The notes below the pieces were generated by a model, which was not told the DNA's origin, did not search any database, and saw only the letters and a program-made list of their open reading frames with translations. A program made the translations under genes and the position numbers. Positions 38 to 55,684 of a stretch of 64,000 nt of DNA are shown piece by piece. The stretch's first letter is position 1. Each line of letters opens with the position of its first letter. This DNA is from Spirochaetales bacterium (GTDB lineage Bacteria > Spirochaetota > Spirochaetia > SZUA-6 > JAFGRV01), in the NCBI GenBank assembly GCA_016937215.1, contig JAFGWI010000033.1, positions 16,266 through 80,265 on the forward strand, in the 5' to 3' direction.

Positions 38-334
38 TGTACTAGTTTAACTAAATGGGGGCCTTTGTTTTAAACACGCATTAGGGATAGAAGGCATGAC
101 TGGCTTGCTATTTTTTAAGAAATAGCAAGCCAAAGCGTTTTCTGCCGAATAATTTCCGATAGAAAACCTTCATAGTAACAGCGAAGTTAGGATTCAGACT
201 TATAGTGAATGCCAATGAGCATCCACCCCATCGAGCAATAAATGCGGAGCATTTATGACCAGAGGCTGGATAAACCGGCCTGCCATGCCTCTGGGTAGCA
301 AGTAAGGCCTGGAGTATTCTGCTTAACAAATACA
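38..334 (-). repeat. Structured repeat family A (Flavo-1-like), copy R1, with flanking inverted repeats
   Basis: Minus-strand core 77-310 ends TTCTATCCCTAATGCG and has hairpins GTTTTCTATCGGA-AATTA-TTCGGCAGAAAAC and TGGCTTGCTATTT..AAATAGCAAGCCA. Flanks are TGTACTAGTTTAAC (38-51) and GCTTAACAAATACA (321-334). Confidence 0.75.
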
Positions 335-343
335 ATAATTTAC

Positions 344-474
344 TAGAACTAATTTTAACAGTATTGACATTAGCAATTAGTACGCAACGCTATATTATTA
401 ACCTATTTTGTGCTAATAAGAATGTGCATACGCAATTTTCATTATCCTTACCAAACCGCAGTTCTGGATAAGCC
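344..474. repeat. Repeat family B, degenerate copy
   Basis: Starts TAGAACTAATTTTAACAGTATTGACATTAG and ends CTTACCAAACCGCAGTTCTGGATAAGCC, matching the ends of the copies at 3465 and 3641. Confidence 0.5.
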
Positions 475-575
475 AAATTAACACAAACTTGTAAAGATAA
501 TCATATAAAATTCAGGTTTTGTAACCACCCATTGTTAAATATTTTTTGTTCAAAAAATATTTAACAGAATAGAGA

Positions 576-1907
576 TTAATCAACCACAGAATCATAGGCT
601 TCCGTAAAATCACAGACCCATTGGTACAATTCTTTAGAATTACGTCGCTCGATTACCAATTCATCTTTGGGTTTTTTAGCAAACTTCTCTTTCAAACTCT
701 TAAAAACCAAGGATAATATTGTGGGAATTGTCATAAAAATAATTTTCAGATCGAAAAACGGACTCATGCGACGTCCATAGGTAATATCCAATCGTATCAT
801 CTGTTTAAAAGTCAAATCATTTTTCCCACTAACTTGCCACAATCCGGTTAAACCAGGCACATAGTCAAAACGCCCCTGATGCCAGCGCAAATACTCCTTT
901 GCTTCATATGGTATACATGGCCGCGGCCCTACCAGGCTCATATGACCAAAAAATATGTTCAAAAGTTGTGGTAATTCATCAATACATGTTTTTCTTAATA
1001 TATTTCCACCAGGAATAATTCGTTTATCATTTTTATCATCCAGTTTCGTAATCTTGCTACCAGAAGCAATGACATTCTTCATCAAGTTCATATGTTCGTT
1101 TTCATCATTATTAACCTTCATGGTACGGAATTTATATAAGGTGAATATTTTACCCTTATGACCGACTCTCTTCTGAGTGAAAAAAACAGGACCGGGTGAC
1201 ACAATTTTTATATAAATCCCCACAAGCAATAGAAGAGGCAAACTGATTAAAATACTAAAACCCGACACCACAATATCCATAGTTCTTTTCCATAAAGGCA
1301 TTTTTTTAGAGATAATCGACTTAAATTGGTCGGAACTTTGTAGAATATTATTTCCATAGTCAATTGATGAGGCATTTTTATCATTCAATAGAGTACCGAG
1401 GTTCATAACAGTAAGGTTTTCATCAGGCTTTCCCCTTTTACTATCTTTCTGATCATCAAAATCCGATTTCTGAATCCAATGATCAGGATAAATGAAGACA
1501 GTAAAGGGAGGAGGCGCTTGAGAAACAAATATTTCCGCGCTGACGTCAACAGCAAGATGCCAAGCTCCTCTTAATGAAGAACCATGCAGGATGACACCGA
1601 TTATATTTTTATCAAACCATCCGATTATATCCACTTTTCGAATACGATCATATAAATGATGTATGAATTTTTTCAAAATCTTTTTATGCTTAATGTTTTG
1701 CAATTCAAACAAAACCAAAGCAAATTGAGATTCATTTCTATCAGAACGAGCACGCTCTATTTTAAGATTGTAGTGGAAATGCGCAGTATCGAGTATCCCA
1801 ATATTGTTCTGGCTAATCTGGGATATTAACTTGATTCTTTCTTTAATACTTGGCATATTCATCCCCTTTAATAAATAATCTAATTTTTTATTCAAAATAT
1901 CAGTCAT
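576..1907 (-). CDS. Priming sugar transferase (Bac_transf, WcaJ/WbaP-like C-terminus) with an N-terminal degenerate GGDEF-like domain
   Basis: C-terminal motifs KRTMDI, KFRTM, DELPQLLN, MSLVGPRP and PGLTGLWQV. N-terminus has ERARSDR...RKVDIIGWFDKN. Confidence 0.9.
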   Translation of the reverse strand: MTDILNKKLDYLLKGMNMPSIKERIKLISQISQNNIGILDTAHFHYNLKIERARSDRNESQFALVLFELQNIKHKKILKKFIHHLYDRIRKVDIIGWFDKNIIGVILHGSSLRGAWHLAVDVSAEIFVSQAPPPFTVFIYPDHWIQKSDFDDQKDSKRGKPDENLTVMNLGTLLNDKNASSIDYGNNILQSSDQFKSIISKKMPLWKRTMDIVVSGFSILISLPLLLLVGIYIKIVSPGPVFFTQKRVGHKGKIFTLYKFRTMKVNNDENEHMNLMKNVIASGSKITKLDDKNDKRIIPGGNILRKTCIDELPQLLNIFFGHMSLVGPRPCIPYEAKEYLRWHQGRFDYVPGLTGLWQVSGKNDLTFKQMIRLDITYGRRMSPFFDLKIIFMTIPTILSLVFKSLKEKFAKKPKDELVIERRNSKELYQWVCDFTEAYDSVVD

Positions 1908-2016
1908 TTTTATTTTTTATAAATCTGAATCCATTTTAAGAATTTTATATAGAGAATAGTACCACTTCAAAATAGAAATAACCATAATACGAAAGTATGA
2001 TTTTGCTGTTATCCAT

Positions 2017-2281
2017 ATGTATTTGTTTAGCAATGGCTTATTTGGGCGTTTCCCCATTCCGCTTTTTTATGAGCGGTTTATCATTTGAGTACAAAGGAAC
2101 AAACCCTGCCTGGCTTCATGGGGTCGGGCTTTTCGCTTCAACTCCTCGCAGAACCTGTATCCGCTGCTGTAATTGTCCAAAGAAATGGCAAATGATTAAA
2201 ATACAACGGTCTGCTGCGGGGTTTTCGCTGCAATCCCTAACGCGGTAAAAGCTGAAAAATGAATTAGCTAAACAAATACAT
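2017..2281 (+). repeat. Structured repeat family A, copy R2, with a perfect 15 bp terminal inverted repeat
   Basis: Core 2044-2244 reads GGGCGTTTCCCC...GGGGTCGGGCTTTTCGCT...GCAATCCCTAACGCG. Flanks are ATGTATTTGTTTAGC (2017-2031) and GCTAAACAAATACAT (2267-2281). Confidence 0.85.
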
Positions 2282-2707: not shown

Positions 2708-3406
2708 TCAAAGGTATTTAACTGCCCACAGGGCTGCTTGAAGACGATTTTTGACCTTGATTTTTTTATAAATGTTATACAAATGTGTTTTAACAGTATT
2801 AGGTGTAATAAACATTTTGTCGGCTATTTCCTCATTATTCACACCAAGTGAAATCATTTGCAAAATTTCAATTTCCCGTTCAGTAAGATTGGTTTGCTTT
2901 TGAATATAGAATATTTTTTGCTTAAAGCCGTTAAAGGCACATTTTAATAAAATATCTCTAGCAACCCAAAATTCCCCCTTTATCACTGTTTGGACACCAC
3001 GTAGAAACAAATTTAACTTATCGTCGGTATAAAAAAACCCCTTAATTTTTTTTCCTAAAGCTTTGTGCTCCAAACCTGATCCGATATGTAAATTAAACAA
3101 TGCCAAAATAAATGAATCATCATCTGGAGTATTTGTTGAGATAAATTTAATGACATATTCAAAACTGGCATCTCTATTATTGATTAAAAAGAGCTTTTTT
3201 TTATAGTTTTTAACTAAATCATAGTTTAAATTGCCAATATCCTGTAATAAATCACATTGACAATTAAATTCCTTTGAAACCACATATTGAATCAATTCAT
3301 TTTTTAGATTTGGCGAGCCTAAGACAAATGATATTAGCTCCTTTTGCCCCATGCCCTCTTTGGTATTCAAAATCGACTTGGAATTACCGAGCTTAAAATC
3401 TGACAA
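2708..3406 (-). CDS. LuxR-family regulator, CsgD/VpsT-like (atypical receiver plus LuxR HTH)
   Basis: C-terminal LTEREIEIL...NEEIADKMFITPNTVKTHLYNIYKKI...NRLQA. GEFWVAR lies at the position of the VpsT W-x-x-R motif. Start codon uncertain. Confidence 0.88.
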   Translation of the reverse strand: MSDFKLGNSKSILNTKEGMGQKELISFVLGSPNLKNELIQYVVSKEFNCQCDLLQDIGNLNYDLVKNYKKKLFLINNRDASFEYVIKFISTNTPDDDSFILALFNLHIGSGLEHKALGKKIKGFFYTDDKLNLFLRGVQTVIKGEFWVARDILLKCAFNGFKQKIFYIQKQTNLTEREIEILQMISLGVNNEEIADKMFITPNTVKTHLYNIYKKIKVKNRLQAALWAVKYL

Positions 3407-3464
3407 AAAATACCCCTTTTTCGTTCAATATAAAATCATTATCGTAAAAAAATGTTGAAAATAT

Positions 3465-3571
3465 TAGAGCTAATTGCAATAGTCCTGACATAGTCATTAG
3501 CGGGCAATTGCAAATGGATAACTTGTCCGCAATCTTCATGATTCTTGCCAAACCTCAGCATTGCAAGAGCC
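3465..3571. repeat. Repeat family B copy
   Basis: AGAGCTAATTGCAATAGTCCTGACA ... CTTGCCAAAC-CTCA-GCATTGCAAGAGCC. Confidence 0.65.
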
Positions 3572-3640
3572 TTATTAATAAATAAGAATTAATTATAGGC
3601 AAACAAAATTAGTTTAGCAAGAAAAATAATGCTTCAGAAC

Positions 3641-5448: not shown

Positions 5449-5451
5449 AAA

Positions 5452-9680: not shown

Positions 9681-10033
9681 AACACCGGCCTATACACAAA
9701 TAATACTTCATTATTTTGCTACTTCCACTATATTTTTTGGCTGTTTCCCCGGACAAAAAATAAGGGTCCTCTGATTCCATTATCGGGCAGAAAAACCATA
9801 AAAACCACTAAAAAGCAGCAATTCCTGGTCTCATTACTTCTTCGTTAACATGCCCAATAATGCTTATTTTATTTAATTATTTATAGTGTCAGGAATTGCC
9901 ATAGCCAACACTTCGGCCGCATGCAATTTCCGGTAACTTTTTCACTATTTTTTGTACAATAACTGAAAAACACAATATCCTATATTATAAACAGACAAGG
10001 TTGTTACCGGAAATTGCTGACCAAAATAATTTA

Positions 10034-10165
10034 CACGGCTGGTCCGGGGCCGGGCTTTTCCGCAGCTCCGCTTTTGCTCCGACCAAAGCTTTCGCGAAAA
10101 AAGCGCGAAAGCTTTGTTGCTTTGCTTTTTTTGAAAAAAAAGCAAAGCCTGCTCCAATCCCTAAC
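10034..10165 (+). repeat. Structured repeat family A, copy R3 (5' end degenerate)
   Basis: GGGGCCGGGCTTTTCCGCAGCTCCG...CAAAGCTTTCGCG/CGCGAAAGCTTTG...GCTTTGCTTTT/AAAAGCAAAGC...CTCCAATCCCTAAC. Confidence 0.8.
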
Positions 10166-10284
10166 AGTTGCTAAACCACCGTCAAATATTGTAAAAAAAT
10201 ATCAATAAATATTGCTTATCTGCTGATGTTTTCACAATTCTGTGATATTATTTAAAACAATTATTTATGAAAAGGGAGAAAAAA

Positions 10285-12642: not shown

Positions 12643-12950
12643 AAAAATTGAAAAAAACCTTTGGAATTGAGCCATTTATCTGGAATTCTAAAAATTTTGT
12701 GCTATATTTCGGAAAATTTTTAGAAATTATTTTTTTTTGCATAACAAATCTCTTTTTTTGCCATTAATAAATTAGAGACAGAAGGTATGGTCGTTAATTT
12801 TTTCAAAAATTGTCGACCAAAACACTTTTTGCATAAAAACAGAGATTCTTGTACAAAATCAAAATAAAAAATTGTGGACTAAGAACTTTCGCGGACTCGG
12901 CAGGCATGTTGAAATACCCAAAATGATGGTTATGCCACCATTTCAGCAGT

Positions 12951-14102
12951 CTATAGCAGTTTGTTTTGTTTTAAATAGGCAAGGAGATAATCCTGGGACA
13001 CATGTTCCTGTTCCAGACGCCCTTTTTGAGGATGGTCCAGTAAATATTGGCACATTTTTTTTTCATGGGGGTTCAGATACTGCGGAAGCCCGGTCATGGA
13101 AACACCGGGAAGGGGAACCGCGAATTGCTGAAAGCTCTCGTAACACTGAAAGTCCATGAGCATAGATCGGGTTTGGGGAAAAATCGAACGAACGAGGGAC
13201 AAAATTCCAAAACCAGGGGGATCAAGATCGCCCCAATAAAAAAGGGATTTATTGCAAAGCCATTGTACCTTTTTCAATATACCTGCCCGAAATCCGCTTC
13301 CCCACATCACAACAGAATCACTCAGCAAAGGAAAACTGAGAAAATTGGTTTTGTTTTCTATAATGAAAACACGTTGTCCCTGAAGTTCCTTGTTACAGAA
13401 AATTCCCAATGGTTTTGAAACATCAACTTCCGTGGTATTTTCGATGTACCGGCAGCGAATAAGGGGTTCATCATATTTTAATTTATAACGTTTTGAAAAA
13501 TCGCTTTCAGCCCATTCAATGCGATTAGGGGGAAGTAAAAAATCCAGCAGAGAACGAAGGATTTTCCGGTTTTCCTCGACAAATTTGCTGTGAATCTCCA
13601 GGGGGATTTCACGAAGATAAATATCGGGCTCAGGATTGTTCATAAACCAATGGCAGACCAACAAAAGATTCGGCCAATGCCGCGGATCTGTTTCAAGAAG
13701 ACTGATGTTTTTTTCAAACCACTCTTCGAGTTCCGGCAGGGATTGCCTTATCAGCTCCACATTGCAAACAAAACGCTTAAAATCCGCTGTTTTTTCTATG
13801 AAACGAAGAAAATGGCTTTCCTGGGAGAAATAGATTCGTTTTATACGGCTTTGAAGGCCGTATTTTTTGGAATTCACTGTTTCCCAGTCTATGGAATATC
13901 CAAAACCCCTTTTTTCCAAGGAACGGCTCAATAAAAGTTCGATGGATTTTTTTCGTTCCACAAAGGGATCGGTGAGTTTTCCTTTATTGCAGGATATTTC
14001 AAGGGGGAAAAAATCTTCTTTTTTTAAAAAAGCCCTGCAAAAAGCCAGATACTTTGCCCTGGCTTTTTTCTTAACTTCCTGTGGGCTGACCATTTTGCTC
14101 AA
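12951..14102 (-). CDS. jetD: Wadjet nuclease JetD (DUF3322 plus DUF2220 Toprim)
   Basis: YLREIPLEIHSKFVE, IIENKTNF, YWGDLDPPG and RLEQE. Last gene of a 4-gene overlapping operon. Confidence 0.9.
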   Translation of the reverse strand: MSKMVSPQEVKKKARAKYLAFCRAFLKKEDFFPLEISCNKGKLTDPFVERKKSIELLLSRSLEKRGFGYSIDWETVNSKKYGLQSRIKRIYFSQESHFLRFIEKTADFKRFVCNVELIRQSLPELEEWFEKNISLLETDPRHWPNLLLVCHWFMNNPEPDIYLREIPLEIHSKFVEENRKILRSLLDFLLPPNRIEWAESDFSKRYKLKYDEPLIRCRYIENTTEVDVSKPLGIFCNKELQGQRVFIIENKTNFLSFPLLSDSVVMWGSGFRAGILKKVQWLCNKSLFYWGDLDPPGFGILSLVRSIFPQTRSMLMDFQCYESFQQFAVPLPGVSMTGLPQYLNPHEKKMCQYLLDHPQKGRLEQEHVSQDYLLAYLKQNKLL

Positions 14103-17100
14103 TTATCGCGAATTCCTTTTTTTTCTCACGGTATTCTTCAAGAGTCATGTTATAAAGACTGGATCGTTGGCCGTCACTTTCAACAAAATGCACTGCCTTT
14201 ATATAATCCTCAACTATGTTGATTTTATCAAGGGGTGTAACAACCATTAACTGCAGTTCCAGCTTTTTAAAGAGGTCCATGGCATAAACCGAGTTTTCAG
14301 GATCCACCTTGCTGAAGGCTTCATCAACAATGGCAAATCGGAAAGAGCGATGGTGGCTGCCTTCACCGGAAATATTAAATTGATAGGCAATGGCTGAGGC
14401 CAATATAGTGTAGGCCAGCTTGGCTTTCTCGCCTCCGGAAAGGCTTTGGGAATCCTGATAAAACTGTTTTTCCTTATCATCTTCGCGAAAACGCTCGATA
14501 GCGGAAAAATTCAGCCAGTTTCTCACATCAAGCAGTTTTTTGCGCTTATAATTGTCCTCCTGGAGTTGAAGAATAAACCTTTGCATGTTTGAAAAAAGCT
14601 TTTCCAGGGCCCCTTCGTCGCGGTTGGCCAAATCCAGGACATTGCCCAAAATGTTTTTAAGCTGGCCTTTGAAAGTCAAAATCGCGTTGTCTCTGGCTGG
14701 TTCATAATGCAAAATAATGTAAGTTGAAGGGGATTTGTTATATTCAATTTCGCCCAGGGCGCTGTTAAGTTCGTCGATGCTCTTTTTAATCTCGTTTTCC
14801 GCGTCCTCCAGGCTTTGACGGAAATTGACCAGATCTTCAATCATTTTTTCGTTTAAAAATTCCTTGAAGTCCTTTTTATAACGGGGCAGATCATCATGGT
14901 TCAAAACCTCGAATATCCGCTTGTATTCATCTTTAAATTCAACGTCAGCCGCCAGTTCAATGGTCAATTCCTCCCAGCCTGGATATTCCCGCAAAATATC
15001 ACCGCCCGGCGACTTAAATTTTGTCATGGTTTTTACCAGCTTTTTTTCCACAGCGTGGAATTTTTCTTCAGCTTCGTTTAGCAAAACCTCTATTTTTTCA
15101 AAACTATCAAGTCGCGCGTTTTTCAATCCTTCTAAAGATAATGAAGACAAGCCTTCCATGGTTTTCCCGATTAAACGGCAAATTTTTTGCTCATCAAACA
15201 CAATTCCGGCAAAATGTTCCAGAAGCTGTGAATAACTTTCTTTTTCCGATAACAGGTTTTTCATCACCTCTTCCAGGCTGCCGATATACTGATCAGTATC
15301 CTTTATTTCATTCCGCAATTTTTTTATTTCTGCTTCCAGGTTTTCCAGCTTTTTCTGAAGCTGCTGAAGCTCTTTTGAAGCCGCGGCCAGCTCCTTTTTA
15401 TCATTCTCCAGTTTAAGCACGCGTTCCTGGGATTCCCACCAATTCAGTTCATTGAAATTCCTGAATTCGTTAAAACGGGTCAAATCAGCTTTGATTTGAT
15501 GATACTCATCCTGCCGTCCGCGTAATTGTTCAAAGGTTTTTTGGCTTTCACTTAAATCTTCGGACAATTGACGAACTTGCTCCCGAAGCATGGAAATTTT
15601 ATTATAATTGTCCCAACCCAGAACAAAATTCTCGCGGCCCCTGTCGGCTTTCCGGTCATCCTTTTCATGCCGTTCGCCCGATTTTACCAAACCCTCAGGG
15701 GTTACAGCTTTGTTAAAATGAGAAAAATCATCGACCTTTTCAACACAGCGATAATCAAAATGATTATGAAGATGATTTTCCACCCAATGAAAAAAGGGAG
15801 ATTCCTTTTTGATTTCCAGTTTATAAATAAGGCTTTCAGCATCTATATCCCTGTCATGAGTCCAGAATGCTTCCTGACCTGTCCGGTAATAAATCAAGCG
15901 CCCCTTTAAATTATTCTTGTTTACAAAACGGTTCACCTTTAGGTAATGCTCTTCATTCACCAGCAAACAAAGAGCGAAGTTGTGAAGAATCCTTTCAGCG
16001 GCAAGTTCCCACTGAAGCTCGCTATCCTTAACCTGAATAAGCTCACCAGCAAAGGGTAATTCCTTTTCCGTAAGCCCAAGGGCTTCAAGAATGGCATGAC
16101 GCATTTCAATATTTGTTCGGGGTATATTATTCTTCCGTTTCATGAGGGAAAGAATATCTGCTTCGCGGTTTTCCTTTTCTTCAACGATTCGACTGATTTT
16201 CTGACGATTCAAAAACAAACGTTCTTCAAGTTCATGATATTTATCATCGATTTCCTTTTCTTTCTGCCTGGCCCATTGCTTGTTTTCCAGGTAATCAGCC
16301 TCTTTTTTCAGTTCACCGATTTTCAGCCTTTGCGCCACTTGGTTATAACGTTTAAAATTGTTCAGTTTGCTAGTCTTGATTTCTTCGTTGTGACGGATTT
16401 CATCTTCAATGCGTAATATCTGTTGGGCCGCGTCATTCTTGTCAATGGCATTCTGTAAATCGCGCCTCTCCCTGTCATAATCATCATGTTTTTTTTCAAG
16501 CCCCTGTCTTTTTTCCTGCCCGAGATTCAATTCTTCGGTTTTAAGATCCAATTCAAAATCAACCCGCTGGCAAATCATGGACGCGAAAAAACCGGGTACA
16601 AGCTGTTTGTTTTCCCTGTACTCGGTAATTTTCAGATGGGATTTCTCAAACTCTTCGATGCAATCGATAACCGGTTCAAGGTACTCAAGCTGCTTTCCCG
16701 CCAGTTCGATTTTCCGATGGGCATTGAACAATTGCTGATAATTGGAATGGAGCCCCTGAAATTCGTTTTCCATATCCGGCGTGTCCAGCATATTGTCCCT
16801 GATAAATTCATTCAAATTACCAAGAACCTTGACACCGACAATATGAGAAAAAAGATTTAATGCTTTTTCAGAGCGAAGACCAAGGATGGGCAGAAAATAC
16901 CTCGCGTATAGAGAAAAACTTTCATAAAAATTGATTCCATGATTCAAATGCCAGTTTTTTCTGAAATTGCTGTTAAAATCCAGGGGCAGCAAATGCTCTT
17001 TTAATGAAAGTTCCATGGGGCTGGAAAAATAAAGCTGAGACAAGCCTCCTGATGTGAATCGCCGGATTTGCCCAAGACAGAGCTCTCGCTGAAGAGCTTC

Positions 17101-17463
17101 GTTTTTAAACACACCAAGCAGCACGGAATAATCTTTTTTATCGCGAAGATATTCGGCAACAGCACTGGTCTGCTCTTCACTTCGGCGACTACCAATCGCG
17201 CCCAGCACATAGGAACGCTCTGTTCGCTCTCGCTTACGGTCCGCGCCGGAAGACTGATTATAATGGCGTTTGGACGAGGGCACCAGCAAGGTAATAAGCG
17301 CGTCCACAAGGGTTGTTTTTCCGGAACCATTGGCGCCTGTCAACAAGGAGGATTCACCCCCTGGCGCCAGTTGATAGATTTTTCCGTCAAAGCAACCCCA
17401 ATTGTAAAACTCAAAACGATGCAGTTTATAACCGCCTTGTCCCAAATCAAAGAGCATTGACAT
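14071..17463 (-). CDS. jetC: Wadjet SMC-like ATPase JetC
   Basis: YNWGCF, Walker A GANGSGKT, long coiled coil, signature LSGGEK and Walker B FAIVDEAF. Confidence 0.92.
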   Translation of the reverse strand: MSMLFDLGQGGYKLHRFEFYNWGCFDGKIYQLAPGGESSLLTGANGSGKTTLVDALITLLVPSSKRHYNQSSGADRKRERTERSYVLGAIGSRRSEEQTSAVAEYLRDKKDYSVLLGVFKNEALQRELCLGQIRRFTSGGLSQLYFSSPMELSLKEHLLPLDFNSNFRKNWHLNHGINFYESFSLYARYFLPILGLRSEKALNLFSHIVGVKVLGNLNEFIRDNMLDTPDMENEFQGLHSNYQQLFNAHRKIELAGKQLEYLEPVIDCIEEFEKSHLKITEYRENKQLVPGFFASMICQRVDFELDLKTEELNLGQEKRQGLEKKHDDYDRERRDLQNAIDKNDAAQQILRIEDEIRHNEEIKTSKLNNFKRYNQVAQRLKIGELKKEADYLENKQWARQKEKEIDDKYHELEERLFLNRQKISRIVEEKENREADILSLMKRKNNIPRTNIEMRHAILEALGLTEKELPFAGELIQVKDSELQWELAAERILHNFALCLLVNEEHYLKVNRFVNKNNLKGRLIYYRTGQEAFWTHDRDIDAESLIYKLEIKKESPFFHWVENHLHNHFDYRCVEKVDDFSHFNKAVTPEGLVKSGERHEKDDRKADRGRENFVLGWDNYNKISMLREQVRQLSEDLSESQKTFEQLRGRQDEYHQIKADLTRFNEFRNFNELNWWESQERVLKLENDKKELAAASKELQQLQKKLENLEAEIKKLRNEIKDTDQYIGSLEEVMKNLLSEKESYSQLLEHFAGIVFDEQKICRLIGKTMEGLSSLSLEGLKNARLDSFEKIEVLLNEAEEKFHAVEKKLVKTMTKFKSPGGDILREYPGWEELTIELAADVEFKDEYKRIFEVLNHDDLPRYKKDFKEFLNEKMIEDLVNFRQSLEDAENEIKKSIDELNSALGEIEYNKSPSTYIILHYEPARDNAILTFKGQLKNILGNVLDLANRDEGALEKLFSNMQRFILQLQEDNYKRKKLLDVRNWLNFSAIERFREDDKEKQFYQDSQSLSGGEKAKLAYTILASAIAYQFNISGEGSHHRSFRFAIVDEAFSKVDPENSVYAMDLFKKLELQLMVVTPLDKINIVEDYIKAVHFVESDGQRSSLYNMTLEEYREKKKEFAIIEQNGQPTGS

Positions 17464-18049
17464 ATATTTCCAACCTTTTTTTAAAATCATTCAAGAATTC
17501 GGGGTCGACCTTGGCCTTAATAATGCGGCGGACTTCATAGACATCTTCGTTATCCTGGGACCCGGTTAAATTTATTTGCTTTAAAAAACCCAGAGATTCC
17601 ACTTGATGTATATATTTATCTAGCTCACGGAAAAGACTGGTTTCATCGGTTTTTTCCTTAAAATAAATCCTGATTCGTTCGCGAATTTCCTTCTTTCGAA
17701 TAAAAAGGCGAGTACTCTCGCTGCTGGATGTGTCAAAACGCTCGAGTTCTTCCCTAAGAATAACACACAACAGGGTCGCTTCAAAGGTAATTCTTCGACG
17801 GGTTACAAGGCGGGGAATGCGGCTTTCCGGGCTGTCTTCCTGAGCCTCCATCTGCCGTAAATAACAAAAACCTTCGGCTTCCTGCAAATCGATTTCAAGA
17901 CCTATAAGCCCTAAATAATCGGTCACCTTGTTCCGCATTACCAGCAACAAGGACCAGTCGCTGTCCTCTTCATAAACAGGTCCGCGTAACAGTTTTATAA
18001 CAAGAGCAGCCAAATCCACATCAATGTCTTTTTTTCCATCCATTATCAT
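17447..18049 (-). CDS. jetB: Wadjet JetB (DUF4194)
   Basis: 200 aa with KLLRGPVY, YLGLIGLE..EAEGFCYLRQ and YEVRRIIKA. Lies between jetA and jetC. Confidence 0.88.
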   Translation of the reverse strand: MIMDGKKDIDVDLAALVIKLLRGPVYEEDSDWSLLLVMRNKVTDYLGLIGLEIDLQEAEGFCYLRQMEAQEDSPESRIPRLVTRRRITFEATLLCVILREELERFDTSSSESTRLFIRKKEIRERIRIYFKEKTDETSLFRELDKYIHQVESLGFLKQINLTGSQDNEDVYEVRRIIKAKVDPEFLNDFKKRLEIYVNAL

Positions 18050-19897: not shown

Positions 19898-19978
19898 TGA
19901 CAGATTATTATTGAAGAAAATATAGCATCATTTTCCGAAAGAACGCAATACATTTACCCATGAAGAAGCCGCTTATTA

Positions 19979-19995
19979 GCGCTAGGGATAGAAGC
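19979..19995 (-). repeat. Solo 3' end of a family A element
   Basis: Minus strand GCTTCTATCCCTAGCGC. Confidence 0.45.
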
Positions 19996-37589: not shown

Positions 37590-37741
37590 GGGAGGTTGCC
37601 CCAGCCCTGGAGGGCTCGGGCCGGGCTCTCCACCACTCCGCTATCGCTCCGAAGGTTTTCGCGCTGAAATAATCAGCGCGAAAACGCTTTGGCAAGGCAT
37701 TTTTAAAAAAATGCCTTGCCATGGCTTCGATCCCTAACCCC
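37590..37741 (+). repeat. Structured repeat family A, copy R6
   Basis: GGGAGGTTGCCC...GGGCCGGGCT...GTTTTCGCGCTGA-AATAA-TCAGCGCGAAAAC...TGGCAAGGCATTTT/AAAATGCCTTGCCA...TCGATCCCTAAC. Confidence 0.82.
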
Positions 37742-38594: not shown

Positions 38595-38668
<74 letters not shown>

Positions 38669-41251: not shown

Positions 41252-41715
41252 TCAGGGGCGTTTTTATCTTTTGACTTGTTGATAAATTCCTTACTTCATG
41301 ATAATATTTAATGAAGTGTCATCTTCTTCAGTGAATCGAGGTAATTTTCCATATTATTTTGATTCAAGTAAGCGCGATTTGTAAAATCGCCTTTTCTGTT
41401 TCTTTGTAATAGAAGAAAAAAATTTCGTTGCGCGGGAAGCTGGCTACATATATTTTTAGCATTGATTAAACCATTGAATAATGAGCACAATGCGTAAAAC
41501 CTTTTGAATCACGATTTTAACAGCCCTTTTTATCAAAATCGGCTGTTAAAGCGTTTTTAACTGGATAATTTTCATCATAATGCTTCAAAAACAAAAGTCG
41601 AAACAGGTCACCACTACAGAGCGATCCATTTGAATCATTTATGACCAAAGAATAAAAATTGTGGTCTCTTGGAATAAAACCAGGTGAAAAAACGCTAAAA
41701 GGAATTTGTATAGAA

Positions 41716-45948: not shown

Positions 45949-46149
45949 TAACTTGTTCAGTTAAATCGATTTCCCGCTCTTAGCGCGTTAGGGATTGGAG
46001 CCATGTTCAGTCATTTTTTTAAAAATGACTGAACAAAGCGTTTTTGGGCGGATAATTTCCGCCCGAAAACCTTCAAAGTGGCGCAAAGCCCGGCCTGCTG
46101 AAATGTAATGAAAGCAGGCAACGCCCGAAAAATCAGACCAAACAAATAG
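45949..46149 (-). repeat. Structured repeat family A, copy R7, with degenerate inverted-repeat flanks
   Basis: Core 45984-46126 (minus: GGGCGTTGCCTGC...GCAGGCCGGGCTTTGCG...CCAATCCCTAACGCG). Flanks are TAACTTGTTCAGT and ACCAAACAAATAG. Confidence 0.85.
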
Positions 46150-46156: not shown

Positions 46157-48415
46157 TTATTTTACAAACTGGAGCTCAGCCAGATTAATTCCCTGCCAGC
46201 AGTCATTAAAACCGAAAACAGGATACTGCTGCGATTCACGGCTTTCAGTGCCATCATTATCAGCAAGAGCGATGTTAAAACCGATAATGCCCAATTCTTT
46301 TGCATCTGCTGTTAATCCAATTGAAAACTCAAGAACAGTGCCATCAGCGCTCCATACCGCTTTATGAGCTGGTTCATAGGAACTTTCGTCCCAATCCTTG
46401 CCCACAAGGGTTCTCAATTGTATAAAATTATTATTCATATCGAGGAAAACCTCAACATTGTCATTTTCCCATACATTAGGCGCCTCTGTATAGGTGATAT
46501 CATCAGACCGAAGAACATAACCGTAAATTGTATTACCATTATAAACTATTCCCCATTCGCCGCGGAAATCCTTGTAATCCCCCGTATAAACAAGATTATC
46601 TTCGGAGAGTTGATTGAAAATCAATGGGTACTTCACAGCTTTGGTCCATTCACCATCGCTGATTTTACCATCAACTTTAACGATAGAGGATTCATTGGCA
46701 TGAAAAGGAATCACCACTCTTGGCGGCTCAGGAGGACGAGGTGAAGTTCCTTCAAATTTAAGGCTGCCGAGGTTCACGCCCTGCCAGCTGTCATTCTGGC
46801 CAGTTATAGAATAAAGCTGCCATTTCCTGCTTTCACCATCATTATCGCTGAGCGCGATATTCCATCCTGCAATAAGATTGGCTAAATTGGCATCAGGCAA
46901 TTCAATACTCAATTCAAGCACTGTTCCATCCTTGTTCCAGACAGCTTTATGCGCTCCCGCGTAGGAGGAGTCTTCAAAATCGCTTCCGATTAATGTTCTG
47001 AGCTGGACAAAGGTCCCGTTCAGATCAAAAAAAACTTCAACATTATCGCTTTCATAGGAATTGGCTGCTTTTGTGAAAGTTACATTATCCACGCGTTTCA
47101 AAAAAACATAAACTGTATTTCCCTTGTACAACACAGACCATTCACCTGATAATTCAGCAGGATCCTTAGGCGGTCTAAGATCATCAACATTAAGTTGATT
47201 AAACCCTAAAGGATAGTTAACAGCATTGGCCCATTCATCAGCGTTGATAACACCATCAACAACAGGAGCTGTCTTTGCTTCGCGAGCCACAAAAGGCGGA
47301 ATAGCACGTCGGCTATTATCAGCCGAATCGCTCATATTTTCATAACCTGTTTCAACAGGACCAGCAACCAAAGCATCACGCACCGCGTAAAAAGAAGGCT
47401 TTGGATTATAATCGTGGTCAAAAAGCAATGAATCGCCATAACCCGGAGAAAAACCCGGAATCCATGAAACAGCATCGGTAAAACCCCAGGTAATAAAAGT
47501 ATCACACTCGGGAAAAGCCAGCATTATTTGCGTCAACTTTTGGTACATTTCCGCCTGAAGCTGATAATCTTCAGGAGTAAAGGGTTCCTGCATTTTGATA
47601 TCCAGTTCAGTAATATCCACTTTCAAACCAAGATCAACAAAACGCTTGATGTTTTTATAAAAACTGTCAAAGGGCCAGCTCTTCGCCACAGTTAAATGGC
47701 ACTGAAGACCAACACCATGAATGGGAACACCTTGATCCAGCAATTCCTTAACCATTTTGTACATGGCATTAGATTTCGCGTTAACAGTTTCCACACCATA
47801 ATCATTGTAATACAACAAGGCATCGGGTACTGCCGCGTGAGCCATACGGAAAACCGCGGGAATAAAATCCTTGCCAAGGGTATCATAAAAAACCGATTTT
47901 CGGTAATTTGAACCATCAAGGGCTTCATTCACCACATCCCAGGCATAAACCTTAGCGGCATAACGGCCGGCTACATTATCAATATGGTATTTTAACGCGG
48001 CCAAAAGCTCCTCTTTTCCCCAAGGAGTTTTGGGCGTTAACAGCCAGTCAGGTGCTTGGCTGTGCCATACAAGGGTATGACCCCGCACTTTCATGTCATT
48101 GGCCATGGCAAATTCCACAATTTTATCAGCATCTTCAAAGGCAAAGCCCTCAGGCTCAGGATGAAGGCTCGACCATTTCATCGCGTTTTCAGCTGTTACA
48201 TAATTAAAATGCATGCTTAAAGTATCAGCATATTGTTTATTATCAAGCTGCACCGGATCAACAGCAGAACCGACAAACATATTCTGCTTCACCGCCGCTT
48301 CCCTCAAACTGAGACCTTCAATTTTGGCAGCACTGCTTTTCTCCGCCGACTTCTCGGTGGAAATACAGCCAAACAGAACAATCATGCAGATAAATAAAAT
48401 ACTGAATTTTTTCAT
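46157..48415 (-). CDS. Lipoprotein GH10 endo-1,4-beta-xylanase with two tandem CBM9-like domains
   Basis: Lipobox LFGC, TAENAMK, RGHTLVWH, WDVVNE and ITELD, plus a duplicated VDG..EW..DNVEVF..NIAL.DNDG module. Confidence 0.92.
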   Translation of the reverse strand: MKKFSILFICMIVLFGCISTEKSAEKSSAAKIEGLSLREAAVKQNMFVGSAVDPVQLDNKQYADTLSMHFNYVTAENAMKWSSLHPEPEGFAFEDADKIVEFAMANDMKVRGHTLVWHSQAPDWLLTPKTPWGKEELLAALKYHIDNVAGRYAAKVYAWDVVNEALDGSNYRKSVFYDTLGKDFIPAVFRMAHAAVPDALLYYNDYGVETVNAKSNAMYKMVKELLDQGVPIHGVGLQCHLTVAKSWPFDSFYKNIKRFVDLGLKVDITELDIKMQEPFTPEDYQLQAEMYQKLTQIMLAFPECDTFITWGFTDAVSWIPGFSPGYGDSLLFDHDYNPKPSFYAVRDALVAGPVETGYENMSDSADNSRRAIPPFVAREAKTAPVVDGVINADEWANAVNYPLGFNQLNVDDLRPPKDPAELSGEWSVLYKGNTVYVFLKRVDNVTFTKAANSYESDNVEVFFDLNGTFVQLRTLIGSDFEDSSYAGAHKAVWNKDGTVLELSIELPDANLANLIAGWNIALSDNDGESRKWQLYSITGQNDSWQGVNLGSLKFEGTSPRPPEPPRVVIPFHANESSIVKVDGKISDGEWTKAVKYPLIFNQLSEDNLVYTGDYKDFRGEWGIVYNGNTIYGYVLRSDDITYTEAPNVWENDNVEVFLDMNNNFIQLRTLVGKDWDESSYEPAHKAVWSADGTVLEFSIGLTADAKELGIIGFNIALADNDGTESRESQQYPVFGFNDCWQGINLAELQFVK

Positions 48416-48773
48416 TCTACCTCTCCTAAAAAAAATTATCATAAAATACATTTTTATCCCATAGCAATGAAAATATCAACAATAGATTATGAGATAAAAT
48501 GGAAACAAATCAATCATCATTATAAAATATCTATAATCCTGGGTGTGTCCGCAAAGGTTCATTGCCGTGAAGTTTACTGTAACGTGAAAAACTGTAACTT
48601 ATCAATTAAATTATTTTGTATTCACCCGGTTTTCATGATTATTCAAAAAAATATAGTTGAAATTACAATATTACCGCGTTATGATAATACAGAATGGATT
48701 AATTAACCATCAAAAAGTGAGAAACAGAAACCCCCGCTTTATTCAGAGGATTAATAAAAACAAGGAGTCTGTG

Positions 48774-51111: not shown

Positions 51112-51129
51112 GGGGCAATCCTGACCTGA

Positions 51130-51567: not shown

Positions 51568-51722
51568 GGGCGTTCCCCTGTTCCGCTCCTCTTCACAGGG
51601 TCGGGCTATGCGTTACTCCGGCTTTGCCTCCGAAGGTTTTGGCACGGAAATTATCCGCGCCAAAACGCTTTACCTGGCAGGTTTTGAAAAACCTGCCAGG
51701 TATAACTCCTATCCCTAACGCG
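51568..51722 (+). repeat. Structured repeat family A, copy R8
   Basis: GGGCGTTCCCCTG...CAGGGTCGGGCTATGCG...GTTTTGGCACGGA-AATTA-TCCGCGCCAAAAC...TACCTGGCAGGTTTT/AAAACCTGCCAGGTA...CTATCCCTAACGCG. Confidence 0.88.
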
Positions 51723-51940: not shown

Positions 51941-51971
51941 CGAATATGACTCCTATTTTTAACACATTAAA

Positions 51972-53288
51972 CTAGCATTGGAAAGCTGGCACAAGATTAA
52001 CATAATACTGAGCGATCAAAAGAGCGTCAACAATATCAACAGCGCCATTACAATTAACATCAGCGCTTTCCTGATAGAAATTCTGTACTGGCAAGCTCAC
52101 ATAATTCTGAGCAATCAAAAGGGCATCCACAATATTTATCGCATTATCATGATTGCAATCTCCCAAATCAAAGGGTTCAGCTGTTGGAACAGGTGTCGGG
52201 GTCGGAGTTTCCGATAATTCCTCGATTTTTTCCTGCATGGCTCGCTGAATTCCATAATACGCGGGTTTTTTCTGACCATTGTCATTGAAAATAAGAGGCG
52301 CGACAGCTTTGTCCTCCGGTGCGTCAGGATTAATTCGCCAATTCTGACTGTCCCGGATACCCCATACCTGCAAAACCTTAAACATCGGCTGATCAAGAGC
52401 CACTTTGGTTATCCAGTAATAAATATCGCCTTGAGCCTCAAGCCCGCTTGTGGATGTATTGGGAGCTCCCCCATCCATTTCAGTAATATAACTTTCAAGG
52501 CCAATATCAGCGAGTTTCTGAAGTTTTTCACCAAAGCTCCTTGCCATGGCTTCGGTAAAATCAGGGTTCAAATGCATCTGAAAACCTACACCAGTAATTG
52601 GAATTCCTCGTTGCATATAATCCTTCATGGCAGTGTACATACCGTTAAATTTGGCATCGAGAGTTGAAATAGAATAATCATTGTAAATCAACCTGGCATT
52701 GGGATCAACACGATGGGCGATTTTAAAGGCGTCTTCAATATATTGCTTACCTTGTCGTTGGCCAAAAACAGAAGCGCCATCCTGACCATTTGACCCAATG
52801 GCATTGATACGAAAAGTTCCATCACGGTGAAAAGCTTCGTTAACAACATCCCAGCCCCAGATTTGACCTTTGAAATGGTTGCCAACCGCAGTAATGTATT
52901 CTTCCATCATGCTTTTGGTTCCATCCACCCAGCCAGGATTATATTTATGCCACACAAAGGCATGGCCATGAACCAGCATATTATTTTGTCGTGCCAGATT
53001 CACAACCCGGTCACCGCCACTGTAATTATATTGGCCTCTATTTGGTGAAATGGTTCCGATTTTCATATCATTTTCGCATGTCATGATGTCAAATTCGGTA
53101 GTAACTATATTCTGGTCACTTCCACCAAGATTCGAAGGCACAGCGGCCCCGATATAAAATTCCCTTCCCAAATCCCTGAGCTGCTTTGATAAGCTTTTAA
53201 GGGATTGAGCTGATGCTGTAACACTCAAACCTCCCAATAAAAGAACAGCCAGAACAATAACAGAAATTACTTTTCTTTTTTTACCCAC
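51972..53288 (-). CDS. Secreted GH10 xylanase with a Pro/Thr linker and C-terminal dockerin
   Basis: TCENDMK, HGHAFVWH, WDVVNE and ITEMD, then GDCNHDNAINIVDALLIAQ..ADVNCNGAVDIVDALLIAQYY. Confidence 0.92.
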   Translation of the reverse strand: MGKKRKVISVIVLAVLLLGGLSVTASAQSLKSLSKQLRDLGREFYIGAAVPSNLGGSDQNIVTTEFDIMTCENDMKIGTISPNRGQYNYSGGDRVVNLARQNNMLVHGHAFVWHKYNPGWVDGTKSMMEEYITAVGNHFKGQIWGWDVVNEAFHRDGTFRINAIGSNGQDGASVFGQRQGKQYIEDAFKIAHRVDPNARLIYNDYSISTLDAKFNGMYTAMKDYMQRGIPITGVGFQMHLNPDFTEAMARSFGEKLQKLADIGLESYITEMDGGAPNTSTSGLEAQGDIYYWITKVALDQPMFKVLQVWGIRDSQNWRINPDAPEDKAVAPLIFNDNGQKKPAYYGIQRAMQEKIEELSETPTPTPVPTAEPFDLGDCNHDNAINIVDALLIAQNYVSLPVQNFYQESADVNCNGAVDIVDALLIAQYYVNLVPAFQC

Positions 53289-53483
53289 TTACTTCTCCTT
53301 GAATTATCAATTTTATTTTATGGTTTCGTTTCAATTAATTTATCACAAAAAATGGGAAAACAATATAAGGGTTTCCCAAGTAATATACATAAGATGAATT
53401 CCAGTATGGTCCTTAAGTGATTACTGCTATTATTGTAACAATACGGTAATAAATCCTATTCCCGACATCACATAGCACCAACG

Positions 53484-53520
53484 AAAAAGAGGCCGCATCA
53501 GGCAATACGGCCTCTTTTTT
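53484..53520. terminator. Bidirectional terminator
   Basis: AAAAAGAGGCCG...CGGCCTCTTTTT. Confidence 0.8.
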
Positions 53521-53600
53521 ATTTCGTGAAATCCATCAATGGAGGCCGGTCATGGGCAATTCAGAAAAAATCGCTCACTCCAGCGCATCCAAAAATTCTA

Positions 53601-54746
53601 TCAGGGCAGATTCTTGGAAGCCATTTCCCAGGCAGAATCCCGGCAGATGTTACAGGTCGAACCAACAAGAAAACCCTTGCCTGTTGCGCTCATATCGTCT
53701 TTTAGCCACCAGTTTAGCCAGGCTAAAGTGACCTGACCGAATAATCCACCATTGTCGTCATTCAGAGTGCCGCCATGACCGACATTCCTGCTAACAAACA
53801 TCGCGGGAACAGCACCGTTTTTAATCGCTTGAAAATCTCTTTTGCCGTTAGCGTAAGCCATATCACTGGTGCCGCCTTCGAGAAAAAGAACCGGCGTTTG
53901 AAAGGAATCGATGACCGACTGATTCGCGCTTGTCATGCCGCTGCTCACGGGCATGAAAGTGGTTAAAACAGGATCCTTCATGGAGCCTGCGCCCTCGGCC
54001 ATAATGCCACCGCAGGAAAATCCGAATGCCGCGGTCTTTGTTGCATCAAGACTCTGGTAGTACTGACTGCAGGGGTTGTCGTTCTCTCTGATCGCCCATT
54101 TGATAGCATCGAGCAGACACACTCCACCCCTTAAATCCATACTGTAAGCAGTACCACAACCGCCGCCGCTGCCATTGGGTGTGCCATCGGCGATCACCAG
54201 GTAGCCATGAGAGGCAAGCTGCCCACAGTACTCAGTATTGGATAATCCATCAGTAGAACAAGCCCCCTGGCCCCAGGAAGCAATGGGATATTTTTTTCCA
54301 GGCGCCAAATCGGATGGTCTGAAAATGGTGAATTTGGGCAAACCAGGATCAGTTTCAACCACAACCTGATGAGAGCCGGTAAAAGAGCTGCCGGTAAAAT
54401 TGACATTTACCTTCTGCGGAGTTGGATTGGGAGTACAATTCGGTGCCTGTGGTGTTGGCGTTGGCGTATTAGGACAATTTAGCCCGTTTATCAGATTGAT
54501 ATAATACCTTGCGATTTGTAACGCGTCCACAATATTGATTTCATTATCCCCATTTACATCGGCAACCGATGTCACAAACCCTGTTGGATCCAGCTGGACA
54601 TAATACTGAGCGATGAGCAATGCGTCCACGATGTCAACCGTGCCGTTTGAATTAACATCACCGCATTCCTGCGCGAATCCCTGGGCAATGCTGAATAAAA
54701 ACATCAGCAAAACCAGTACTGCGAATTTCTTTTTCTTTTTTTCCAT
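53601..54746 (-). CDS. Secreted N-terminal dockerin plus alpha/beta hydrolase (cutinase/polyesterase-like esterase)
   Basis: CGDVNSNGTVDIVDALLIAQYY..ADVNGDNEINIVDALQIARYY, PTPTP linker, GFSCGG nucleophile motif, GGTSD and GHGG. Confidence 0.85.
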   Translation of the reverse strand: MEKKKKKFAVLVLLMFLFSIAQGFAQECGDVNSNGTVDIVDALLIAQYYVQLDPTGFVTSVADVNGDNEINIVDALQIARYYINLINGLNCPNTPTPTPQAPNCTPNPTPQKVNVNFTGSSFTGSHQVVVETDPGLPKFTIFRPSDLAPGKKYPIASWGQGACSTDGLSNTEYCGQLASHGYLVIADGTPNGSGGGCGTAYSMDLRGGVCLLDAIKWAIRENDNPCSQYYQSLDATKTAAFGFSCGGIMAEGAGSMKDPVLTTFMPVSSGMTSANQSVIDSFQTPVLFLEGGTSDMAYANGKRDFQAIKNGAVPAMFVSRNVGHGGTLNDDNGGLFGQVTLAWLNWWLKDDMSATGKGFLVGSTCNICRDSAWEMASKNLP

Positions 54747-55357
54747 TAAAAATCTCCTTATGAAATAATATTAATAATCGCCTGATTCAGGCGTTTTGAC
54801 AGCGGATAAAAAAGTATAAAAAAAGAACCATTTCTTTATCATCACCTCAACAAATTTATAAATCTATACAGGAGAATAAATAAAAAAACAAATTTGATTG
54901 ATGATCAGTAATTACTTTTCAATTATTAAAATTTCTAACTTCGTTTTTTTGATAGATTTTCTTGTTCTAAAAGAACCTTTATCTCCATTTTCCGAATGAT
55001 CACTTCCACTTTAAAAAAAATAATATTTCCACAAAACAGATCTTTTTGTAAATAAATCTGCTTATTTATCATATCATAAAATCAGTGATAATTGTTGAAT
55101 TTCAGATTATTTTTTTTAAATTCCAAATGCCAGACAGTTGAAGATTTCCCAGATTGATGGGAGCTTTTTTATAAGTGATTTCACTGAATGTAATAAGCTA
55201 ATAGAAATACCTGGTCCAGGATTTGGTAAAATACTTTTAAGTGAGCAACAGGTACGCCGCTGTCATCCCAGCCATTCTCAATTTGAGTACAAATTGTACG
55301 AATTGCGCACGATTTTCAACGAATTAGCTGCAATTCTAAATGTGACCGATTATAAGA

Positions 55358-55394
55358 GTAGATTCTTCGTCGTACCTCCTCAGAATGACATCGG
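55358..55394. repeat. Family C REP arm
   Basis: GTAGATTCTTCGTCGTACCTCCTCAGAATGACATCGG, identical to 33864-33900. Confidence 0.85.
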
Positions 55395-55532
55395 AAAACA
55401 TTTTTTACATCTACTGAATAGTTAAAATTCCTTTAAGTGAGCAGCGGGTATTTGAAATGATTGTAACCAGGGTGATACACATTCTATTGGAAAAATGGCA
55501 TTTCATTAGCCTAAAACAGGCTTCGGATTTTA

Positions 55533-55684
55533 CGCGTTAGGGATTGGAACGACAGAAAGCCCTTTTTTCAAAAAGGGCTTTCTGAAAAACCTGGGCACGA
55601 CAATTCCGTGCCCAGGTTTTTCACAGCGGAGCGGAGTCGTGTAAAGCCCGGACCTGCTGGAATGGAATGAAAGCAGGTAACGCC
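55533..55684 (-). repeat. Structured repeat family A, copy R9
   Basis: Minus: GGCGTTACCTGC...GCAGGTCCGGGCTTT...AAAACCTGGGCACG/CGTGCCCAGGTTTT...CAGAAAGCCCTTTT/AAAAGGGCTTTCTG...CCAATCCCTAACGCG. Confidence 0.88.

Follow-up and report, generated by a model that had tools for sequence, protein, structure and literature searches.

The 64,000-nucleotide stretch of DNA analysed here (the window; Spirochaetales bacterium, GenBank assembly GCA_016937215.1, contig JAFGWI010000033.1, positions 16,266–80,265) carries dispersed copies of a folded repeat. The most fitting classification for it is as an enlarged variant of Flavo-1, a known orphan family that has been listed in Rfam as a small RNA (sRNA) since 2010. 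The element is most likely a selfish, structure-dependent DNA repeat that is mobilised in trans and whose copies recombine. We assign a probability of roughly one half to the reading that it belongs to the Flavo-1 superfamily as a structured DNA repeat, non-coding and non-autonomous, which has multiplied massively in the lineage of the host spirochaete and is mobilised by a factor encoded elsewhere; a role at the RNA level is a possibility that we regard as considerably less probable.

The unit runs from GGGCGTT to ATCCCTAACGC, and a typical copy folds on either strand. Coordinates and strands are given in the orientation of an earlier note on this DNA, with GGGCGTT at the 5' end; the strand modelled by Rfam, referred to below as the Flavo-1 strand, is the opposite one. 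The closing helix P0 (GCGTT/AACGC) reflects a terminal complementarity of 5–6 bp and encloses the 5' hairpin P1. P2, the Flavo-1 core helix (CGGGCT.../...ATCCC), consists of GGG/CCC, TT/AA and then four variable pairs, and encloses a junction with a mini-hairpin (CTCCG-GC..GC-CTTCGA), P3 (a hairpin of 13–14 bp with a 5-nt loop) and P4 (a perfect 15-bp palindrome with a 2-nt centre, GA, in which the innermost five pairs are T5/A5, giving the loop T5-GA-A5). Junctions, loops and the bases of the helices are conserved, in part across two phyla; the middles of the helices are nearly unique to each copy and almost purely Watson–Crick. Of 334 two-ended copies, 194 fall in the length mode of 140–160 nt. 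At least three subfamilies are distinguished by the type of P3, one 200-nt type (the 2044 copy of the window) has neither P3 nor P4, and longer forms carry additional small repeats, lodged within P1 or following CGGGCT.

The earlier note had described nine dispersed cores and a solo end that share the scaffold GGGCGTT-[stem]-CGGGCT-.... All nine are where it placed them, as judged by direct reading, by a profile derived from 192 copies in the genome and by R1, a covariance model made from host-genome copies and run on the window with filters off. Direct reading also bore out the scaffold and all of the quoted stem pairs; the middle hairpins of the 45984 and 51568 copies contain one A.C or C.A mismatch each. 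All copies in the window lie outside long open reading frames (ORFs). The 3' motif ATCCCTAACGCG, searched with up to two mismatches, has nine matches in the window compared with 2.45 expected (none of 100 shuffles reached nine), one of which, at 24318, is not an element. The copies and fragments are as follows.

77–310, minus strand: long, partly decayed copy (R1 83–228, 51 bits; profile) with a recognisable 3' half (middle and last hairpins, tail ATCCCTAATGCG), a 5' end without GGGCGTT and extra repeat modules inserted

2044–2244 (R1 2044–2150), plus strand: 200-nt copy of the Flavo-1-core subtype, without P3 and P4 and with an A-rich, unstructured centre; it lies within an outer inverted repeat (TATTTGTTTAGC at 2020–2031, GCTAAACAAATA at 2267–2278; whole feature 2020–2278) and matches Flavo-1 at 32.5 bits on the minus strand (2118–2251)

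9999–10168, plus strand: copy with a decayed 5' end lacking GGGCGTT, with tail CCCTAACAG and intact P2, P3 and P4 hairpins (R1 99.5 bits; profile)

12768–12919, minus strand: decayed relic missed by the earlier note (R1 28.2 bits, E 1.2e-5), in which the last hairpin with loop TTTTTGAAAAAA and a mutated tail are still discernible

19543–19860, plus strand: long copy interrupted by ~170 nt of foreign sequence (R1 19543–19626 and 19777–19849; profile), with mutated termini (AGGGCATT ... ATCCCCAAGGC) and the outer inverted repeat at its flanks

19978–19989, minus strand: solo 3' end fragment, AGCGCTAGGGAT, which the note had put at 19979

30797–30949, plus strand: canonical copy of 153 nt (R1 131.3 bits)

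37590–37741, plus strand: canonical copy with slightly mutated termini (GGGAGGTT ... TAACCCC; R1 122.1 bits, 37591–37741)

41518–41597, minus strand: possible decayed relic (middle and last hairpins), also missed by the note (weak R1 match, 18.6 bits, E 0.0036)

45984–46126, minus strand: canonical copy of 143 nt without the mini-hairpin (R1 135 bits)

51568–51722, plus strand: canonical copy of 155 nt (R1 140.1 bits)

55533–55685, minus strand: canonical copy of 153 nt (R1 142.5 bits)

The two arms of the helices change together. In a set of 45 copies (five from the window and 40 random genomic copies of 140–160 nt with exact ends), 92.8% of cells are paired compared with 67.8% after shuffling, and 429 cells are changed on both sides compared with 133, neither value being reached in any of 500 shuffles; when the partners are slid by 1–3 columns, pairing falls to 36–53%. 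Double changes are found at 28 of the 38 predicted pairs, and the count of further pair types is no higher than in shuffles (78 versus 77.7). The proposal that the stems differ in sequence yet stay paired is therefore upheld: compensatory change is highly significant, and neither the shuffled nor the slid control reproduces it. In other genomes covariation extends even to positions that are invariant in the host genome, with P0 variants GCGCA/TGCGC, GCGCG/CGCGC, GCGGC/GCCGC and GGAC/GTCC and P2a variants GCG/CGC and GAG/CTC.

The extent of the variation in the stems is unusual in relation to that of the scaffold. Among 52 copies of one subfamily, differences between copies amount to 3.1% in the scaffold, 46% in the P3 arms and 61% in the P4 arms; 130 of 139 well-formed P4 hairpins have distinct 9-mer arms, with Hamming distances like those of column-shuffled sequence. 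A comparison of 40 copies that share one geometry counts 7006 compensated stem-pair differences and 768 that affect a single arm (108 and 27, respectively, in the closest pairs). The unpaired positions of these copies differ by 8% whatever the number of differing stem pairs, whereas uncompensated stem changes amount to only ~1.4% of pairs. Stepwise evolution by way of wobble intermediates is ruled out: only 115 of 283 double changes in close pairs are of the transition type, so most did not pass through such intermediates.

Within the 52-copy subfamily there is no correlation between P3 distances and P4 distances (rho −0.005, Mantel 0.50); P4 does correlate with the P2 pairs next to it (rho 0.26, with none of 500 permutations as high). 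One P4, GGCTTGCCA, occurs seven times, and several copies with identical P4 have wholly different P3. This combination is very unlikely to have arisen by stepwise drift; whole hairpins seem to have been exchanged or replaced, and arm-to-arm correction or block exchange of hairpins, in some form, is needed to explain the data. Copying of stems from flanking DNA was rejected, as P4-arm k-mers (k = 8) occur in their own flanks seven times compared with 7.6 for re-paired flanks. A rolling-hairpin flip-flop was also rejected because loop orientation never flips (P4 centre GA in 132 copies and TC in one; P3 loops 131 versus 3).

Mismatches are rare and unevenly distributed between the strands. A geometry-based count over P1, P3 and P4 of 208 copies gives 64 internal mismatches beside 4675 Watson–Crick pairs; in the GGGCGTT orientation 28 of these are A.C/C.A and six are G.T/T.G (p 2e-4), which on the Flavo-1 strand become 28 wobbles and six A.C. 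A fold in which G.U is forbidden gives 144 one-by-one mismatches and 10,134 pairs, with 23 G.T and 29 A.C, i.e. no excess of G.T. The Flavo-1 strand either tolerates wobble or is the strand exposed to deamination. Structured RNAs usually show far more G.U pairs than the ~0.6% of stem positions seen here on the favoured strand. The evidence points to one folded strand being read with a stringency closer to that of DNA than to that of known structured RNAs, and both strands of the 45984 copy, whether treated as RNA or as DNA, give folds much more stable than those of shuffled sequences (z −7.6 to −9.0).

The earlier note had remarked that the ends resemble the Flavo-1 motif. The resemblance reflects real homology, but formal membership does not follow: a search with the Rfam model (RF01705, gathering cut-off 42 bits) gives sub-threshold matches and none over the cut-off. 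At permissive settings it matches one of the nine window copies, the 32.5-bit match listed above, on the strand opposite to the GGGCGTT orientation; in the host genome 150 scored candidates yield 24 matches at E ≤ 0.001, with a best score of 35.7 bits and none at 42 or above. The Flavo-1 core helix with its two internal loops (GaAGcGGAA/AgCGgAaAGC), closed by ccG/Cgg, is present on the Flavo-1 strand, and canonical copies retain CGGGCT...CTCCG... and ...CTCCAATCCC. In alignments the two share twin internal-loop motifs (GAUUGxAGCGGAAA and AGCGGAAAGCCCGA) and an identical flank, UUUU-GCGUUA-GGGAU, and both are multi-copy, intergenic repeats found in both orientations in Bacteroidota and spirochaetes. 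The host element differs in having a junction with a mini-hairpin and long P3 and P4 in place of a single apical hairpin, in its ~600 copies with stems nearly unique to each, and in its low scores.

A search of a species-representative collection for the termini (GGGCGTT-N(8-38)-CGGGCT-N(50-80)-ATCCCTAACG) returned at least 120 loci, mostly from Bacteroidota (among those listed, Flavobacterium including F. psychrophilum, Pedobacter, Mucilaginibacter, Lutibacter, Algibacter, Mesonia, Chitinophagaceae and Bacteroidales), with several records from Treponema. Among 20 of these chosen to span taxa, eight pass the Flavo-1 model (42.3–69.2 bits) and three more match below its cut-off, while all 20 match R1 (30–73 bits), always on the strand opposite to Flavo-1; the host element is therefore an expanded relative of Flavo-1. 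P1 covaries in the short forms of these 20 loci (double changes at five of six pairs, 95% of cells paired). Since P0 and P1, both present in the Bacteroidota copies, lie outside the 76 positions of the Rfam model, that model covers only the inner part of the GGGCGTT..AACGC unit.

Other genomes and families are designated by our own codes (G001, G003, G038, G095 and G147; f9 and f21), with G000 for the host genome. Among 30 relatives searched, four from the same family and none from the host genus, there was one weak match, in another genus of the family; set against ~600 loci in the host, this indicates a lineage-specific burst. Of 150 further genomes sampled evenly across the phylum, 22 were positive: seven of ten in f9, 14 of 16 in f21 and one other. 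Copies in G095 (f9) share identical P3 and P4, whereas in G147 (f9) the stems all differ between copies and the loop TTTTTGAAAAA is kept, so that hypervariable stems are a property of part of the family and not only of the host genome. The Rfam model had no match at E ≤ 0.01 on the loci of G095, G147 and f21. A protein scan of metagenomes with the GalT-like neighbour returned no relatives, and the literature search found nothing specific on such repeats in spirochaetes or Flavobacterium.

The host assembly comprises 335 contigs (5.09 Mb, G+C 41%) and has three FlaA sheath-protein genes, compared with none in 14 control genomes, in keeping with a spirochaete host. The genome-wide count suggested in the earlier note gives 603 loci of at least 100 nt, from 868 profile pieces merged into 833 loci, which cover 102,413 bases or 2.0% of the assembly; exact TCCCTAACGC 3' ends number 443, or 666 with one mismatch. 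Copies occur in both orientations across the genome, as the note had described for the window. Because the repeats break the assembly, with 281 of 670 contig ends (42%) within 300 nt of a piece compared with 10% of the genome, the true copy number is higher; contigs of community DNA also break at the repeats. By crude gene calls made here, which also underlie the orientation counts near starts and stops, 306 of 326 full copies lie outside ORFs, and tandem, divergent and convergent spacers (152, 74 and 48) track spacer length. Median distances are 80 nt to a stop codon and 178 nt to a start codon, and 108 of the 152 copies in tandem spacers are nearer to the upstream stop. Orientation just downstream of stops is random (105 versus 110), and across 527 loci there is no bias relative to the sign of the GC skew, a proxy for replication direction in a draft assembly, or to the local gene strand (Fisher p 0.66 and 0.43). 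Copies decay in place and host nested insertions.

The orientation of successive copies depends on the distance between them. When their 3' tips are less than 4.5 kb apart, 44 have the same and 117 the opposite orientation, compared with 117 and 125 at greater distances. At gaps below 1 kb, all 21 inverted pairs have the 3' tips facing and none has the 5' ends facing, and the tip-to-tip arrangement is seen in every gene context; in the window the 51568 and 55533 copies form a pair with facing 3' tips 3.8 kb apart. The spacers of the 21 close pairs (49–895 nt) are mutually unlike and the partners come from different subfamilies, so the pairs are independent copies and not local duplications. 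Deletion of close direct repeats would explain the scarcity of neighbours in the same orientation, but the tip-to-tip arrangement requires something beyond it.

Short tandem arrays also lie beside the 3' tip. All five motif-defined arrays with a neighbouring copy are 17–52 nt from its 3' tip and none is at a 5' end; Tandem Repeats Finder (TRF) places four at 3' tips and none at 5' ends, although the numbers are small. Arrays of 17–20-nt units with AGGTCTGTCCCC occur on host contigs C11, C46, C117, C144, C180, C221, C301 and C303, several of them at contig ends, and AGGTCTGTCCCC also clusters around the two host genes (C114, C180) that resemble the REP-associated tyrosine transposase (RAYT; REP, repetitive extragenic palindrome).

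Target-site duplication is absent: no direct repeat of 3–8 bp was found at offsets of up to 9 nt from the ends (best 7/326), and there is no long terminal inverted repeat beyond the 5–6 bp of GCGTT/AACGC. About one-sixth of copies are surrounded at fixed distances by the outer inverted repeat TATTTGTTTAGC ... GCTAAACAAATA, of which the upstream arm ends 10–13 nt before the element and the downstream arm begins 23 nt after it. When a fuzzy motif is sought at a fixed distance, 54 of 326 copies have the upstream arm, 59 the downstream arm and 34 both; by exact match the repeat is not above re-paired flanks (80 versus 64). The flanks are T-rich on the 5' side, carry GTTAAAA on the 3' side and are in many cases themselves repeated at 80–90% identity. 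Another small repeat, ~180 nt long and bounded by ACAGCAATTC...GAATTGTTGT (C174:~3200–3500 and C252:~73200–73400) occupies the same insertion point in the P1 loop of elements of different subfamilies, the two inserts being 97.8% identical; a related piece lies at ~55270–55360 in the window.

The earlier note had offered two explanations, selection on the fold or a selfish element with stem-homogenising replication; both still stand, and the evidence leans to a selfish DNA element. In such an element a trans-acting factor would recognise the fold of one strand, the Flavo-1 strand, reading the conserved unpaired motifs and requiring of the stems only that they pair. New copies would arise without target duplication through an enzyme other than a DDE, Y1 or RAYT transposase, and copies would swap whole hairpin modules among themselves. 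Single-arm mutations would be lost quickly, for which templated correction from arm to arm and purging of dead copies would both suffice, and nearby direct repeats would be removed by deletion.

Several observations weigh against this interpretation. No insertion or excision event was seen; at the sole orthologous locus tried, that of a sigma-54 activator, the upstream kinase is retained in G001 and G003 whereas the gene downstream is a different one, so gene order is broken and no empty site can be read. Tests for RAYT, Y1 and integron integrase found no mobilising gene: a RAYT-like homologue is present in two of 22 element-positive and 47 of 128 element-negative genomes, and Pfam Y1_Tnp was found in one of five element-positive genomes that are 99% complete and not in the other four. 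Within 150 nt upstream of starts, the Flavo-1 strand is co-directional with the gene at 129 of 189 copies (p 6e-7), and this bias, like the asymmetry of the wobbles, also fits a role at the RNA level. Lastly, some 40 positions of the scaffold are conserved in both phyla, which could reflect a function for the host and not selfish spread.

A broader proposal, which we put forward tentatively and think unlikely, is that Flavo-1 and its expanded relatives form an unrecognised class of mobile hairpins in Bacteroidota and Spirochaetota. Such hairpins would move without a DDE or a Y1/RAYT enzyme, and recognition would be of a single folded strand, by way of the conserved motifs in its junction and loops. 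Their arms would be kept perfectly complementary by arm-to-arm templated correction together with swaps of whole hairpins, and the reactive end would be the GCGTTAGGGAT tip, where partner copies and short tandem arrays gather.

The strongest of the competing explanations, although still improbable in our estimation, is a structured RNA family transcribed from the Flavo-1 strand, either as sRNA genes or as structures in 5' or 3' untranslated regions, with the fold selected as RNA. The multi-helix junction, conserved unpaired nucleotides and covarying stems are as expected of such a family, as are the preference of wobble-type mismatches for one strand (28 versus 6), the orientation upstream of starts (129 versus 60) and the classification of Flavo-1 as an sRNA in Rfam. 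In print, Flavo-1 (PMC2864571) was found only as a computational motif with no function assigned, and a study of Leptospira lists it among unannotated transcribed regions (bioRxiv 10.1101/2023.03.29.534852). Some 5' transcribed regions of F. psychrophilum coincide with Flavo-1 matches, but the matches are sense or antisense to transcribed regions indiscriminately and many lie outside them, according to one report (PMC9723704). The assembled contigs of the metatranscriptome of the same study as the host genome place the listed pieces in genes and none on an element. An RNA is at odds with the scarcity of G.U-type pairs (28 beside 4675), the absence of an orientation preference after stops, the ~600 loci with their decayed relics and nested insertions, and the orientation pattern of neighbours, which is a signature at the DNA level.

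It is less probable still that the copies are domesticated sites of folded or cruciform DNA, selected by the host for binding of a conserved protein (e.g. in nucleoid organisation or in the control of recombination or repair). Termini and junction motifs identical in Bacteroidota and Spirochaetota, strictly Watson–Crick pairing and the low rate of uncompensated stem changes (~1.4% of pairs versus 8% at unpaired scaffold positions) would all suit such sites. The copy number, however, is 0–2 in relatives of the same family compared with ~600 in the host, decayed relics are common, orientation is independent of GC skew and of the strand of nearby genes, and no candidate protein was found.

We consider it quite unlikely that the copies form a REP or REPIN (REP doublet) population driven by the two RAYT-like genes. 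These Y1 transposase genes, each of 159 aa, match the RAYT model at 78.6 and 72.7 bits, one has a full element copy ~200 nt downstream, and inverted pairs of a hairpin inserted without target duplication do exist here. REP, bacterial interspersed mosaic elements (BIMEs) and REPINs (PMC3116915, PMC8266576) are likewise high-copy extragenic palindromic DNA with pairing maintained, no target duplication and common inverted neighbours; by comparison, the host element is much larger and multi-branched and has neither a conserved doublet nor RAYT co-occurrence. Neither score reaches 80, the NCBIfam cut-off, and another motif (AGGTCTGTCCC) flanks the genes; with one copy per 8 kb, chance will often place an element next to any particular gene. 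A single-copy RAYT flanked by and co-inherited with its repeat is not what the genome counts given above show, which led to its rejection as the driver, and close partners differ in subfamily and have no conserved spacer, unlike the inverted doublet of REP sequences. Elements of the IS200/IS605 single-stranded DNA type (palindrome-associated transposable elements, PATE) would have a Y1 partner and a replication-related orientation bias, and neither was found.

The attC consensus is R''(RYYYAAC)...R'(GTTRRRY), with AAC...GTT polarity and cassette arrays beside intI. A DDE-derived MITE (miniature inverted-repeat transposable element) or an attC-like site of an integron integrase is already disfavoured and very improbable: the element is short, intergenic and high-copy, with the outer inverted repeat TATTTGTTTAGC at fixed distances (both arms at 34/326) and four copies in the first 12 kb of a contig with an integron-integrase gene, but it has no direct repeat of 3–8 bp and only 5–6 bp of terminal inverted repeat where a MITE would have at least ~10 bp and a target-site duplication, its polarity is GTT...AAC, its copies are dispersed and do not form cassette arrays, none occurs in the 40 kb beside intI in G095, and integron integrase scores below the cut-off in the element-positive genomes G147 and G038. 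Like attC, the element conserves structure rather than sequence, with short boxes around variable stems and one active strand; unlike attC, it ends GTT...AAC on both strands and has no association with intI. The integron-integrase gene of the host (C94:1260–2407; TIGR02249, 322.6 bits, over the cut-off) has one in-frame TAA and a separate N-terminal piece and is probably broken. Integron integrases also occur in two f9 genomes, but the element copies are not cassette sites of these integrases. The bcr repeats of the Bacillus cereus group are MITE-like, with a predicted fold supported by compensatory substitutions, and are unrelated in sequence and host; to our knowledge, neither stems unique to each copy nor a neighbour-orientation pattern has been reported for them.

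The window is otherwise an ordinary chromosomal stretch, with an exopolysaccharide (EPS) cluster, a Wadjet operon, ABC transporters, two-component systems, GH10 xylanases and a Bat operon. A scan at Rfam cut-offs gave a single match, a tRNA gene at 38595–38668 on the minus strand (63.2 bits). The Wadjet-type operon of four genes (12951–19488, minus strand; DUF3375, DUF4194/MksE-like, an SMC-like ATPase of 1139 aa and JetD) is flanked by the decayed relic at 12768–12919 and the interrupted copy at 19543–19860. Three genes on the minus strand (46157–48451, 51972–53288 and 53601–54746) encode a GH10 xylanase with CBM9, a GH10 xylanase with a type I dockerin (the order along the DNA is not implied) and another protein that has a dockerin domain; dockerins are uncommon outside cellulosome-forming Firmicutes. 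Between the two dockerin-protein genes, at 53404–53521 on the plus strand, a stretch that matches the Thr operon leader below threshold (30.4 bits; cut-off 55) ends in a terminator-like hairpin and a T run and is probably just a terminator. In two DNA runs, depth at the inserted letters 55372/55375 within the stretch 55360–55424 is ~1700–2000 compared with 8–15 in adjacent unique sequence; the stretch contains CGTCGTACCTCCTCAGAATGACATCGG, presumably a motif common to many organisms of the community.

For an orphan that has stood in Rfam as an sRNA, the host genome supplies ~600 natural variants of an enlarged form, and the true ends, GGGCGTT and AACGC, lie beyond the part of the unit that the Rfam model covers. 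New here are the link between phyla through shared termini, the boundaries of the unit, the strand asymmetry of the mismatches and the evidence for module exchange, together with the orientation pattern of neighbours, confirmed in a spirochaete, and the tests that spoke against Y1/RAYT, a target duplication, flip-flop and a bias with replication. Repeats of this kind fragment the assembly, would be mis-annotated as sRNA genes and, in spirochaetes, are missed by Rfam cut-offs. Pairing of near-DNA stringency, strand-specific wobble, exchange of hairpins and avoidance of direct orientation between neighbours are testable properties, and they point to an element that is mobilised in trans and acts at the level of DNA.

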